Part shown: positions 775 through 56,620 of the stretch, piece after piece
How positions within the stretch are numbered: position 1 is the first letter of the stretch
How the letters are laid out: each line of letters starts with the position of its first letter
Assembly (NCBI GenBank): GCA_964016885.1
Contig: OZ024740.1
Location: 111,166,001-111,230,000, forward strand
Source of the DNA: Eledone cirrhosa
Lineage: Eukaryota
DNA length: 64,000 nt
Direction of reading: 5' to 3'
Notes under the pieces: generated by a model
Database searches by the model: none
Told to the model about the DNA's origin: nothing
Seen by the model: only the letters and a program-made list of their open reading frames with translations
Program-made: the position numbers and the translations under genes

Positions 775-1530
775 TGTCATCTACATTCACAATAATTGGT
801 TCCAATAACAGACGGAAGTAGTTTACTATTAGATGTATTGATATAACCATACGTAACTATATTCTTCCGATGTTGAAGAGATGTAATTAACCATTGTCAG
901 CAAGATTGCATACATTTCATATATATATATATATATATATATATATATATATATATATATATATATATATATATGTATATGTATATATATGTATATGTAT
1001 ATGTGTATATATATATATATATATATATATATATATATATATATATATATATATATATATATATATATATATGTGTGTGTGTGTGTGTATATATATATAT
1101 ATGTATATTTATATATATATATATTGATGTGGATTTAACCCCAAAAAACTATTTCGAGCAATATAAGGAACACTTTTCATTATTTATGCCCTTGAGAAGC
1201 CCAACTGGGCGAAACGTACGTAAGTGCTGTTTTAAATAAACATGTTTTAACGCTCTATTCTCCGATTTTTTACTTTCCCACGTGTATGTATGTATATATA
1301 TATATATATATATATAATATATATATATATATATATATATGAAATGTATGTAATCTTGCTGAAATAGTTAATTACATCCCTTCAACATTGGAAGAATATA
1401 GTTACGTATGGTTTGTTTTATTATATCAATACATCTAATAGTAAACTACTTCCATGTTATAATATATGGCATTGCAATCAATTATTGTGAAAGTATATTT
1501 CGATTTATGCATCAAATACATGACTTACAT
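775..1530. repeat. Diverged inverted pair (about 775-920 and 1339-1530) facing each other across a TA array
   Basis: GGAAGTAGTTTACTATTAGATGTATTGATATAA...CATACATTTCAT matches the reverse complement of ATGAAATGTATG...TTATATCAATACATCTAATAGTAAACTACTTCC. Confidence 0.85.
1186..1227 (+). ncRNA. Hammerhead-like motif with atypical or decayed core in a short insert between TA arrays
   Basis: CTTGAGAA-GCCC-AACT-GGGC-GAAA-CGTACG-TA: clean stem II and palindromic stem III, but no canonical CTGANGA and a weak stem I. Confidence 0.4.
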
Positions 1531-1598
1531 GATATATATGTATATATATATGTGTGTGTGTGTATATATATATATTATATATATATATATATATATAT

Positions 1599-1753
1599 AG
1601 GAACCAGTAAGACCCCGACAGCTGAGCTCAAGCCGTTTCGACAGCTCAGCTGTCGGGGTCTTACTGGTTCCTGTTACCCACTCTACTACCTCAAGTATTG
1701 AGTACTTTGGTGCGTTATGGTCCACCTGGTTCCTTACCACATTTCCTTCGTTA
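1599..1753 (+). mobile_element. Family A fold-back element (derived from HHR 3' half) in (TA)n
   Basis: 30-bp inverted arms 1599-1628/1643-1672 plus an ~80-nt tail ending TTCCTTCGTTA; same family at 18278, 18981 and 27216. Confidence 0.85.
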
Positions 1754-2277
1754 TATATATATATATATATATATATATATATATATATGAATCGTGATAT
1801 CTTCCTGAAGGTAGTATATATACATTGCAGATACATCTCCGATTTCTATCTTATGTAATATATACTATATATATATAAAGAGAGCTATATATAGATATAT
1901 ACACATACACACACACACATATATATATATATATATATTATGTATGCGTATATATATGTACATATAACTCTAACAGGTCGATGATCATTAAAAACATGGA
2001 AACGGAACTTCATCGGAAATTAATAAGAGTTAAACACACTTCTTGTGCATCGAGTACTCAAACACAAACGCACACACATACATACATACACACACACACA
2101 CACACACACACACACACACACACACAACACACACATTTATATATATATATATATATATATATCATTACCGAGATATCTATATATCATTATATATATATCA
2201 TTAGCTTAATATCTATTTATTATTTCGCGATCGCTTTAACATTGCTGTAGCTCACATCCGTTCTACTAAACTATATA

Positions 2278-2390
2278 ATTGTTTCTACTATTGGCACAAG
2301 GCCAGCAATTACTCAGTGCATTACTGGTACTTTATTTTATCCACCCCGTAAGGATGAAAGGCAAAGTTAACCTCGGCGGGATTTGAACTC
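2278..2390 (-). mobile_element. tRNA-derived SINE (abundant family, Meta-domain-like core), partial
   Basis: Reverse complement has B-box GAGTTCAAATCC and the core CTTTGCCTTTCATCCTTACGGGG..GATAAAATAAAGTACCAG. Confidence 0.85.
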
Positions 2391-2651
2391 AACTATATAA
2401 TAGTTAACTATACCATAGTTTCTCTCTCACATACTCTCTCTCACTCTCTCTCTCTCTCTCTCTCTCTCTCTCTCTCTCTCTCTCTATCTCTCTCTCTCAC
2501 TCTCTCTCTCTCTCACTCTCTCTCTCTCTCTCTCTCTCTCTCTCTCTCTCTCTCTCTCTCTCTCTCTCTATATATATATATATATATATATATATATATA
2601 TATATAGTGACGAAACATAAGTCAATTGCATGAACTCATAATCCTTTATTT

Positions 2652-2707
2652 ACTGCTATATATATTTCGATGATAGCCATTGAATGGCTATGACCTCATC
2701 AGGCAGT
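2652..2707 (-). ncRNA. Type I hammerhead ribozyme in a ~165-bp insert (2607-2771) between TA arrays
   Basis: Minus strand: ACTGC-CTGATGA-GGTCATAGCCAT-TCA-ATGGCTATCATC-GAAA-TATATA-TA-GCAGT; 5-bp stem I, long stem II, palindromic stem III. Confidence 0.88.
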
Positions 2708-53452: not shown

Positions 53453-54109
53453 TATATATATATATATATATATACATACATATAGATATATATATGCACA
53501 CACACATATATATGTGTACATACACATACATACGTACGCATCTATAAAAAAAAACTACAATATACTAAAATATACGTATAACGTCATACGTTAAAAGATG
53601 CATCTTGTACTAAACATGCACAGATATAAACATTATAATCATATACAGACATCCATACGCATTCACGTAACATATACATATATAACTGTCTATACATACA
53701 CACACATATATATACGTACACATACGCATACACGTATACAGACATATAAAACAATAAAATAAATATACAATATATTAAAATTTTATGACAATATATGCCC
53801 CGTGGGGTAAACCAAAATAACCCAAGATGCATACTCGACTATAGGACAACATACCTCAACCACAGTGACATACTCCAATATGACCGGGCTACGCACCCCT
53901 ATGCAAATTCAGAAATTTCTACTTATACAATGACCATTCTAAATCCAAACTTAGAATACCGAGTCTCATCATGAGATTAATTTACTATATAAAAACGATA
54001 TACAATTTTTAAGGTAAGGCAAAACGTTATATATATAATAATAATAATAATATTTCAAGAATTATTAATAGTCAATATTTTTTTCTTTCTTCATAGTCAG
54101 TATTTTTTT

Positions 54110-55560
54110 CAAAATTTGTATAATGCTTGAAATGTTCTTACAGACTTATGTAGACAACATCCGAATAATTCTTTTTTCTTATTAATTAAATTACCATAAA
54201 TTGTAATTATTAATAGAGTTTCCAAATTGCAAAGATTGCAATTTGGTGAAATGGAAGCGTTTCGATAGGAAACAGAATCCTTTAGTTTACTTCAAGAAAT
54301 TGAGTATTTAATATTTTTCTCTTTTAAAGACCATATTAATTGTGATAATGATGTAGAACATTTTTTATCTGGATTAGAGAATGAATGTTTTTGATTGGAA
54401 AAGCGAAACTTAAAGTTCGATGAAGTGGCACCAATGTAGTTATAAGTATTATTATTACTTGTCTTAATGGTACATTTATATACTATATTCTTGTCAAGGC
54501 AATTATTTTGTAAAGGGCATTCAGATTTCCGTCTACAATTTCAGTTCAATTCAATGTTATTTCTATAACCTAAACTATTCGTATTATCATTATTATTTCT
54601 AGGTGTTCTACTATTAATCGTATTTAAACTATTATTATTGTTATTCACATTAACTAATGTATTATTATCATTATTATATTTTTGTTATGATCGCTGGTTC
54701 AAATTAAGAATTTTGCTATTTATTTTTGCAATATTTTGAGCAATATTCATAGTTGTTGAATAAGAGAGTTTAACTGTGTGTCTATTGAAGATAGAGTAAT
54801 ACTTATGTGATCTAGGGAAACATTTATCCAAGGGTTTAAAAAATAAATGTGCTAAAGGTGTTTTAATAGCTAAAGATACTGGCGGAGCATACCAAATTAT
54901 AGATCTAGTCCAATTCGCCCCCCCCCCCCCCCCCTGATTTATTCCTCAAGTTGTTATATTTACACTCAGTTTTATTTTTATTATTATGAATAATGTGTTT
55001 ATAATTAATATTATTTATTTCTACATATTCAATATTATTTTTATATCCTGCTTTATGTAACGCTTCATTATAATATCCAGCTTTACTATTAAAAATGGAT
55101 CTATTAGCAGATAGTCTGGATATTCCTTGTTGGACACTATTGACTATTGCATTTTTAACACTTTTAGGATGATTAGAGTAAAAGCTAAAATTATTTAAGT
55201 TTTCATTGAGTTTATAGAAGGGGTACTACAGGCCTGAGTTTAAATTAAGGGTTATATCTAAAAAGTTAACTATTTTATTGTTATTTTCTACTTCTAATTT
55301 CAGGTCATAATTTTTAAAGAATTCTATAATTACTTTCTTTACTCTATTTAATTCGCTATTATTATGTCTAACTACAGTAAATAATATGTTGTCTCTATAT
55401 AAACCACCGGTAATCTCCGTCAGTTTTCTATTTATCATATTAAGGATGAAAATTTCCACAAGATCGGTAACTTGTGCCGAATCGGACGAGCCCATAGTAA
55501 TGTCAAAATTCTTCAGCCTATCAGATCTATTGCAAAAATCATTATTAAAATCAATCCTTT
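54110..55560 (-). pseudogene. Second, diverged Penelope-like RT + GIY-YIG remnant
   Basis: MGSSDSAQVTDLV, GGLYRDN, VNFLDITL; NCRRKSECPLQNNCLDKNIVYKC...NYIGATSSNFKFRF. Confidence 0.9.
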
Positions 55561-56079
55561 GTTTACATTCTTCGTAAATAATTTTGTTCTGTCCAAATGG
55601 ATTGATAATGTATATTTAACATGATTTATACAGTTTAATAATATACGAAAAATCCTTAAAGGGAAACTATATATAATAAGATGTAATTACGGAAGTAAAA
55701 TCGAAATAATAATACTTTTAAGAGTAAATATAACTACTAATTAATCCTGTAATGAAATGACAACCAATGAATTGAAATGATTTTATAATGAAAATAGAAT
55801 AATTCAGATAATACTTCTTAACATTATATAAAATATATATACTGATGGTGATATATGCATGGGTTTTAGTAAATATCCTTATACATATTTAATAGGTATT
55901 TAAACTTGCTTTAAAGTTAAAAATGATTTTGAATATTGTAACAAAATATTTAGTAAATATATTAATTAAACTATGCTTCTGATTACTATAGAAAATATTT
56001 TTATATTGTTTAATTTTGATATAATATATTAGTATAATTAGCTTAAACATAACCAAATACCAAAGATATTAAAAAATTT

Positions 56080-56185
56080 AATTGTTTCTACTTTTGGCAC
56101 AAGGCCAGCAATTACCAGTACATTACTGGTACTTTATTTTATCGACCCCGTAGGGATGAAAGTCAAAGTTAACCTCGGCGGGATT
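56080..56185 (-). mobile_element. SINE, partial
   Basis: Family core and tail. Confidence 0.85.
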
Positions 56186-56558
56186 AATTTAATGGTATTC
56201 ATTTGGTCGCTTCTATTTGACTTAATATTTGAAAGCAACAGTCACACATCATTTCCCTTTCTTTCTTTTTCGCCGTTACGTCTTTCTTCTTCTCTCTTCT
56301 ATCCTTTTTCTTCCCTAACACGTATATTTACACATTTAAATATTTATGTATGTATTTATTTATTTTCTTCTTGCATTTTCTCATACTCACCCCTCCTTAT
56401 GCCTATATCTCGCTCCACATGCTCTTCTTCATTATATTTAAGTTTGTTATGTTATTATTTGTGGTATATAAATGTTGAGATTTGTTGTAATAAATCACTG
56501 CCAATACTGGAATTGAAGCATCAAGACCGTTGAGGTATGTCATGCATCAATTCATGTA

Positions 56559-56620
56559 TTTTATCTGACGAGGACGTACTGAAAAAACAGCACAGTACCT
56601 TCGAAATATATATAATAAAA
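56559..56620 (+). ncRNA. Hammerhead in a pLTR homologous to 31900-32060, opposite in orientation to the 54-55.5 kb ORF
   Basis: TTTTAT-CTGACGA-GGA.GTACTG...CAGTAC.TTC-GAAA-TATATA-TA-ATAAAA; downstream ACTCCAG..AAC...GAGTGCT as in the 32 kb tail. Confidence 0.87.

Follow-up and report, generated by a model that had tools for sequence, protein, structure and literature searches.

Hammerhead ribozymes in the window and in the genome

The stretch of the Eledone cirrhosa genome analysed here, 64,000 nucleotides (nt) that we call the window (G000:C1:111166001-111230000, within a 3.0-Gb assembly), carries many repeats with hammerhead ribozymes (HHRs) beside TA microsatellites. We consider it very likely that these repeats comprise 5'-truncated ends of coding Penelope-like elements (PLEs) of the Hydra clade, non-coding tandem retrozymes and one long non-coding unit, all with fixed ends next to (TA)n, and that the non-coding ones are probably copied by a PLE enzyme. 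A strict type I descriptor (stem I of at least 5 pairs, C3-G8 core, stem II, GAAA, stem III, UH) found nine complete HHRs in the 64 kb (+3930, +13884, +20586, +31918, +56565, -28798, -20334, -18749 and -2702), compared with a mean of 0.03 and a maximum of 1 in 100 block-wise dinucleotide shuffles. Reading by eye added about eight full-length HHRs outside the descriptor (1192, 20085, 22512, 32283, 32799, 52209, 52777 and 53150), among them one with a U3-A8 core (1192), one with a stem II of about 100 nt (52209) and one with a damaged GAAA box (53150), as well as half-HHRs at 1.6, 18.3, 19.0, 27.2 and 47.0 kb. These counts agree with the original prediction, made from the letters of the window, of about 20 motifs or half-motifs in at least 10 families. 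A candidate core at 13155 was dropped, as no second copy was found among the loci. In a search of Rfam at E<=1, the hammerhead model was not among the best 150 of the 229 matches listed, which were microsatellite false matches only.

The predicted adjacency to (TA)n was also found: a (TA)6+ run lies within 200 nt of seven of the nine strict HHRs, compared with 31% of random positions, the HHR at 3930 being an exception with its nearest TA run 1132 nt away. Self-BLAST of the microsatellite-masked window recovered the inverted arms of its elements, and the proposed layout of inverted arm, direct copy and tail fits the described PLE anatomy. The hammerhead-bearing elements are given below, families being named by a letter or by a position in kb.

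1124..1292, plus strand: family 1.2, fragment of the 3' pseudo-long terminal repeat (pLTR) of a coding Hydra-clade PLE; HHR at about 1192, U3-A8 core, stem I displaced upstream
1600..1751, plus strand: family B, inverted arm, half HHR and tail, coding Hydra-clade PLE 3' end (self-BLAST; master copy at locus L161)
2607..2772, minus strand: family 2.7, complete HHR (2702), coding Hydra-clade PLE 3' end with a 1.1-1.2-kb untranslated region (UTR)
3325..3440, minus strand: family 20.07, degenerate copy (self-BLAST)
3880..4140, plus strand: family 3.9, complete HHR (3930; descriptor)
12233..12284, plus strand: family A HHR remnant (self-BLAST)
13686..14067, plus strand: family E, non-coding retrozyme of about 440 nt, HHR 13884, short inverted arm
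18278..18422, plus strand: family B fragment, inverted arm and tail (self-BLAST)
18447..18866, minus strand: family C, single 420-nt retrozyme monomer flanked by TA runs, HHR 18749
18983..19171, plus strand: family B hairpin, two opposed half HHRs, each truncated in stem II
19975..20187, minus strand: family 20.07, minimal HHR (20085) with U17
20204..20632, minus strand: family A, inverted arm, direct pLTR and tail, HHRs 20334 and 20586, coding Hydra-clade PLE 3' end
22163..22658, plus strand: family H, non-coding monomer of about 483 nt, HHR 22512, retrozyme-like
27218..27406, plus strand: family B subfamily hairpin (self-BLAST)
28698..32110, plus strand: resident Hydra-clade PLE, 5'-truncated and frame-broken; inverted pLTR 28700-28945, reverse transcriptase (RT) and endonuclease fragments 29165-30762, pLTR 31771-32110 with HHR 31918 and a 94-nt tail
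32177..33153, plus strand: family D, 516-nt retrozyme in partial tandem, HHRs 32283 and 32799, inverted arm 32177-32266
32575..32602, plus strand: first Hydra-type hairpin of family D, 8 nt past the short 3' end (folds, z -3.5)
32645..32659, plus strand: second Hydra-type hairpin of family D, 7-8 nt past the long 3' end (weak fold alone, z +0.4)
41541..41601, minus strand: family 20.07 tail remnant (self-BLAST)
47004..47317, plus strand: family G, two opposed half HHRs and tail, end of a 2.4-3.1-kb non-coding unit
51890..52389, no single strand: family 52.2, inverted pair and tail, HHR 52209 with stem II of about 100 nt, coding Hydra-clade PLE 3' end
52526..53450, no single strand: family C, inverted monomer and partial tandem, HHRs 52777 and 53150
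54121..56766, no single strand: second broken Hydra-clade PLE, RT and endonuclease fragments on the minus strand (54121-55582), HHR end on the plus strand (56565)

Each window family that was searched recurs elsewhere in the genome: nine exact family patterns, each 20-34 nt long, gave 28,823 occurrences in all, and their reversed controls gave none. In a sample of 200 kb, taken as twenty 10-kb stretches at even spacing along contigs C1-C4, there were 19 strict HHR matches, 18 of them distinct, against 0.1 in shuffled sequence; 13 of the 20 stretches had none. Strict HHR density is 0.14 per kb in the window and 0.09 per kb in this sample, and the window is therefore ordinary for its genome; a rough extrapolation places the genome-wide total on the order of 100,000. 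The original prediction had instead seen a special local community of at least 10 non-coding families around one resident PLE. Of these, four families of retrozymes and a single long non-coding unit are indeed present, but five of the families are coding ends, the resident PLE is broken, and the background stretches hold their distinct HHRs at the same TA density as the window. A local community is thus extremely improbable, and what was seen is a genome-wide background.

A larger set of 484 overlapping loci from the same genome (1.97 Mb), picked for the window families, held 305 distinct strict HHRs in 25 clusters, 20 of them with at least two members. Stem covariation was found as the original prediction had anticipated. 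Pairing is kept across clusters, positions 1-4 of stem I being paired in 79 of 80 cluster cells with at least four pair types each (stem pairing is built into the descriptor, the variety of pair types is not), and the family A HHR has a compensatory two-sided change (47 A-U and 9 C-G among 57). Single-strand folding backed stems in 2.7, 3.9, 18.7 and 52.2, not whole hammerheads. The observation of hammerhead-bearing repeats at TA microsatellites is confirmed, and they occur across the whole genome. At least 10 further HHR families without a window copy were seen (L245, L255, L166, L126, L445, L447, L451, L456), including more U3-A8 cores and a tandem of about 317 nt.

Coding Hydra-clade ends and non-coding retrozymes

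All twelve families of the original prediction had been taken as non-coding, which did not hold for five that are coding ends and did hold for four retrozymes and one long non-coding unit, two more (3.9 and 20.07) being undecided between these classes. Judged from their sequences, families 1.2, 2.7, 19/27 (B), 20.3/12.2 (A) and 52.2 are 5'-truncated ends of coding Hydra-clade PLEs. The family B sequences (1.6, 18.3, 19.0 and 27.2 kb) correspond to the pLTR of an intact element at L161, where a 786-codon frame with RT and GIY-YIG endonuclease lies between two family B HHRs, 3118 nt apart and with the U3-A8 core. Family B copies (L131-L160) are mostly truncated 10-20 nt 5' of GAAA, where an extra hairpin within stem II has its base and RT probably stalls; because most copies stop there, the family appears as half-motifs. 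Family A HHRs (20.3 and 12.2 kb) flank frames of 758-772 codons at L248, L250, L252 and L258, L250 having an intact 758-codon RT and GIY-YIG frame between two copies. In the other three families an endonuclease end is found at a constant distance upstream: 320-660 nt in 9 of 16 loci for family 1.2, mostly 770-870 nt in 11 of 38 loci (overlapping fetches) for 52.2, and in 2 of 30 loci for 2.7, both with the entire 1.1-1.2-kb UTR. The resident element at 28.7-32.1 kb is a broken member of a family for which a first look gave 41,602 RT candidates, with frames of up to 743 codons. At its 5' junction we observed nested short inversions (28956-29019 and 29078-29235).

The putative assignment to the Hydra clade was made from protein motifs alone. 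The coding elements have a single frame with RT followed by a C-terminal GIY-YIG domain (786, 758 and 743 codons stop to stop at L161, L250 and L114), and alignment identified YRDD and VIY...YIG in the Hydra-like frames. RWR and SDKT occur at L161, L250, L114 and L115, in line with the RWK motif and the DKG-to-DKT change of that clade. The CxCx5C linker is present, as are CxxC and CxH around the endonuclease, without CCHH, and these features are damaged in the window's own PLE copy. A canonical HHR lies in the pLTR, with the U3-A8 core in families B and 1.2, and insertion is into (TA)n. The elements exceed the Hydra-clade tendency of <3 kb, measuring 3.1 kb (B), 4.8 kb (A) and about 4.2 kb (P) between HHRs. 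Pfam and PDB searches with the Hydra-like proteins returned no curated or informative match.

The 3' UTR of coding family A (L248:3320-5744, L250:3321-5805, and at L252 and L258) is 2.2-2.6 kb long, consists of TA/TG/TATG microsatellite for 52-59% of its length and holds 10-21 (TA)6+ runs; family 2.7 has a shorter version (L404, L414). Elements of this sort would spread their own TA target.

Of the two undecided families, 3.9 is old (78-86% identity) and has Hydra pieces at 3 of 20 loci, one of them directly upstream, and we lean towards a coding origin. For family 20.07, Hydra sequence was found at 0 of 34 loci, and pieces of a second PLE clade, which from its motifs we take to be Neptune-like, at 2 of 34.

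Families 13.9 (E), 18.7/53 (C), 22.5 (H) and 32 kb (D) are classed by unit length, tandem arrangement and reading frames as non-long-terminal-repeat (non-LTR) retrozymes of 420-516 nt. The 516-nt monomer of D and the 420-nt monomer of C form head-to-tail arrays of up to 10 units, E has units of 437-444 nt in dimers, and the 483-nt unit of H is in tandem once among five exact matches. Their longest listed ATG frames (60, 43, 85 and 58 codons in C, D, E and H) leave no coding capacity, and no open reading frame in the C and D arrays exceeds 72 codons. The predicted presence of metazoan-type retrozymes was thus borne out, and the case in which every family is only the 3' end of a coding PLE was looked at and is not what these four families present. 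Family D and its tandem junction are present in DNA-like sequencing runs, which has no bearing on expression. Octamer-like boxes lie upstream of the HHR in C and E (18790-18840 and 13731-13860), several times in E; we presume that they may form an internal promoter. Family G (47 kb) is, by its sequence features, a long non-autonomous PLE derivative: it terminates a non-coding unit of 2.4-3.1 kb, a length well beyond that of a short monomer. A coding family G element, suggested by the 3.1-kb spacing, was rejected, as RT of the Hydra and the Neptune-like clade is absent.

With five of the 12 families attributed to coding elements, one may ask if all are truncated coding PLE 3' ends and the tandems solo pLTRs expanded locally as satellite by unequal crossover. 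Local amplification after birth from a pLTR has been proposed in a preprint (10.64898/2026.07.22.740005), and within-array homogeneity also fits crossover. Within one array, the units and the inverted arm differ by 1.0% in D and 1.6% in C, compared with 3.3% and 3.7% between arrays, and they have private variants in common. The inverted arms carry these array-private variants too, which counts against crossover. So does the dispersal of C, D and E arrays over thousands of places with the same two ends, variable 5' truncation and inverted arms. Same-strand Hydra sequence was found near C at 0 of 30 loci, near D at 1 of 30 and near E at 1 of 30, contiguous at none of these, and comparison of the monomers with eight coding or long elements, including the coding UTRs tested, gave no match except a separate E insertion. 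For C, D and E this explanation is largely refuted, and overall we hold it to be very unlikely.

Fixed ends, tail hairpins and the template

Ends were mapped by the distance from the cleavage site to the first TA run, against a background that does not exceed 1.3% in any 5-nt bin. Anchors are concentrated at 15-19 or 95-99 nt in family B (73 of 85), at 50-54 nt in 2.7 (26 of 32), at 60-69 nt in 52.2 (25 of 44), at 50-59 or 195-199 nt in G (27 of 47) and at 20-24 or 90-94 nt in A (25 of 70). The C and D arrays have two stop points each, 53 and about 66 nt apart. Family 20.07 is an exception to the TA target and mostly ends at CA/CATA runs. Families of both kinds, coding ends and retrozymes, have one or two fixed 3' ends, lose varying lengths of their 5' side and have a second, inverted arm. 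Two fixed ends per family agree with PAc, a Poseidon PLE of Anolis, whose tail is bounded in vitro by two internal RT start sites (PMC11167929).

In tandem copies, in which the ends are read through, a hairpin of the form RCTC, 7-20 nt, TYGAGY (RCTC...TYGAGYAC) starts 6-9 nt beyond the 3' end at the short and long ends of B, P and D, at the short end of A, in 2.7 and at the long end of G. Its outer pair differs among families (G-C, A-U, U-A), and family H has a UCUC/GAGA form. Read-through copies are lacking for 20.07 and for the long ends of 1.2 and 52.2. Three window families that had seemed unrelated have a common tail motif, an exception to the supposed lack of similarity outside the core; the count of at least 10 families stands. 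Comparison was extended to 78 metagenome loci of Hydra-like proteins, with 46 distinct HHR tails of at least 90 nt. The motif occurs in 36 of these 46 tails from other organisms, twice in 21 (shuffled mean 0.13, 1000 shuffles), starting at 33-54 and 90-130 nt. For copies ending in TA that can be compared with a read-through copy or with a close relative, an end 6-9 nt before the hairpin was paired by eye in six cases; L484 (22 nt) and L517 (11 nt) are less good fits, and for 10 of 18 ends no pairing was possible.

These observations suggest that a PLE protein would nick both strands in AT-rich or TA DNA and that reverse transcription would start within the RNA at two sites, the position of each being fixed by a hairpin 6-9 nt further 3'; each hairpin would perhaps position one subunit of a dimeric PLE protein. 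The two truncated complementary DNAs (cDNAs) would then join to give the inverted arm, direct copy and tail, and we regard this as the probable origin of the PLE layout. The family D retrozyme has both hairpins and is therefore tied to Hydra enzymes; families D and G are probably Hydra-driven. For C and E, the Neptune-like clade (L459-L483) is a candidate driver. It comprises 39,024 candidates, is very young (150 scored copies at 95% or more), has a CxxxxCxxC linker and frames of up to 1167 codons, and shows two TA-flanked ends about 52 nt apart.

We slightly favour a model in which retrozyme transcripts self-cleave, circularise and are then copied round the circle into arrays. At L336 and L337, units clearly alternate between two types, neighbours differing by 3.3-4.0% and next-neighbours by 0.6-0.7%, as copying round a dimeric circle would give. 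Several observations weigh against our interpretation. Clear alternation is found in two of 13 arrays of at least three units, with three weak and eight showing none. U17 occurs in 22 of 27 D copies and in nearly all 20.07 copies, and U17 makes a poor hammerhead cleavage site. Minimum-energy folds of single motifs are mostly not hammerheads, and the retrozyme status of family H has one tandem as its basis. In families 1.2, 52.2 and G, the short end has its hairpin halves separated by 55-90 nt, and no hairpin is present at the A long end, in C and E or at Neptune-like ends.

Alternatively, PLE enzymes could retrotranspose linear read-through transcripts of source arrays, the hammerheads being idle and no circle forming. 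The U17 of family D and the 11 of 13 arrays without clear alternation fit this view, as do the cDNAs seen here, which run through the cleavage site. Uncleaved RNA is moreover the main template of the Poseidon PLE, whose insertion does not require HHR cleavage (PMC11167929). Cores, palindromic stem III loops and stem pairing have been kept across the 20 HHR clusters, however, and near-identical units, private variants and the two period-2 arrays are most simply derived from a circular template. We therefore rate a linear template as a serious possibility, less probable than the circular one.

Neighbouring repeats and relation to known systems

Among the other repeats of the window is a SINE-like (short interspersed element) sequence of about 190 nt in about 16 copies, often within HHR elements at AT-rich spots. 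Its copies include the following.

2256-2391, 13483-13668, 22996-23191, 33185-33289: SINE-like repeat
37496-37682, 40223-40407, 56067-56185, 63662-63872: SINE-like repeat

A LINE (long interspersed element) RT frame of 725 codons (PF00078) lies at 58539-60716, with a 3' copy at the window start (3-293); the LINE 3' part and a 76-nt tandem duplication (58444-58607) adjoin TA runs. An RT fragment at 42428-43420, presumably CR1-like by its motifs, is bordered by a long TA run. Finally, a 600-nt repeat (51070-51671 and 57196-57796, 96% identity) stands beside a small endonuclease-like frame (57796-58275).

The hammerhead elements themselves are of described kinds; the additions are the twin-hairpin signal and PLE hallmarks on retrozyme arrays. 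Hydra-clade PLEs, with an HHR in the pLTR and (TA)n insertion, are reported from Mollusca, including Hydra-1_Obim of Octopus, and partial tandems, an inverted truncated copy and a tail are normal PLE anatomy (Craig et al. 2021, PMC8557442). Earlier work (PMC4209133) also reported the U3-A8 core, and truncated PLEs as the source of HHR pairs in opposed orientation. Our elements resemble the Hydra clade as presented in the available parts of PMC8557442 in the C-terminal GIY-YIG, the RWK-like and DKT motifs, CxCx5C, the HHR in the pLTR, (TA)n, partial tandems, the inverted 5'-truncated copy and the tail. They differ in comprising many families and more than 40,000 RT candidates where one family is listed there, in tails of 70-140 nt as opposed to 30-40 nt, in the 4.8-kb family A with its microsatellite-filled UTR, and in U3-A8 cores. 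The same parts of that paper make no mention of twin tail hairpins, and four family motifs searched in its accessible supplement were absent.

The retrozymes resemble metazoan non-LTR retrozymes (Cervera and de la Pena 2020, PMC7229834; Li et al., 10.64898/2026.07.22.740005) in their non-coding tandem monomers with a type I HHR and a short palindromic stem III, in ranging from monomers to multimers and in co-occurring with PLEs. In the texts as available to us, they differ in monomers of 420-516 nt, in arrays with two fixed ends, an inverted arm and a TA target (terms absent from PMC7229834), and in a partner assigned by a common cis motif rather than by pLTR homology. Neither text yielded a mention of cephalopods, and that of the preprint, which covers 35 species, names no mollusc. 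Searched literature (Dfam, Repbase and subscription journals lay outside the search) held no description of cephalopod retrozymes, twin hairpins or period-2 arrays. PAc (Frangieh et al. 2024, PMC11167929) is alike in two internal starts that bound the tail, in cutting and extending both DNA strands, in an AT-rich target and in a stem-loop start, but belongs to another clade, and the parts consulted do not describe a conserved duplicated hairpin downstream of the starts. Chlamys MRC1-type elements (PMC8557442) are likewise non-coding, depend on PLEs, have pLTRs and insert head to tail in multiple copies; they come from a green alga, mostly lack an HHR and have 3' ends similar to those of their partners.

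Tentatively, and with rather less confidence than in its parts, we propose a duplicated hairpin code. Each hairpin would fix one RT start 6-9 nt upstream, and the tail would be the spacing of two protein-binding hairpins. Retrozymes with both hairpins would hijack the enzyme, which would copy monomeric or heterodimeric RNA circles, in a genome with some 100,000 hammerheads whose PLEs seed their own TA targets. The choice of internal start by PLEs, the origin of inverted arms and tails and the mover of animal retrozymes are stated as open questions in PMC8557442, PMC11167929 and PMC7229834. This genome offers young intact coding PLEs together with dependants in the thousands, and from its conserved two-hairpin signal both starts can be predicted and the partner of family D named. 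With this signal and these intact elements, the questions of start site and partner would therefore be testable in vitro.

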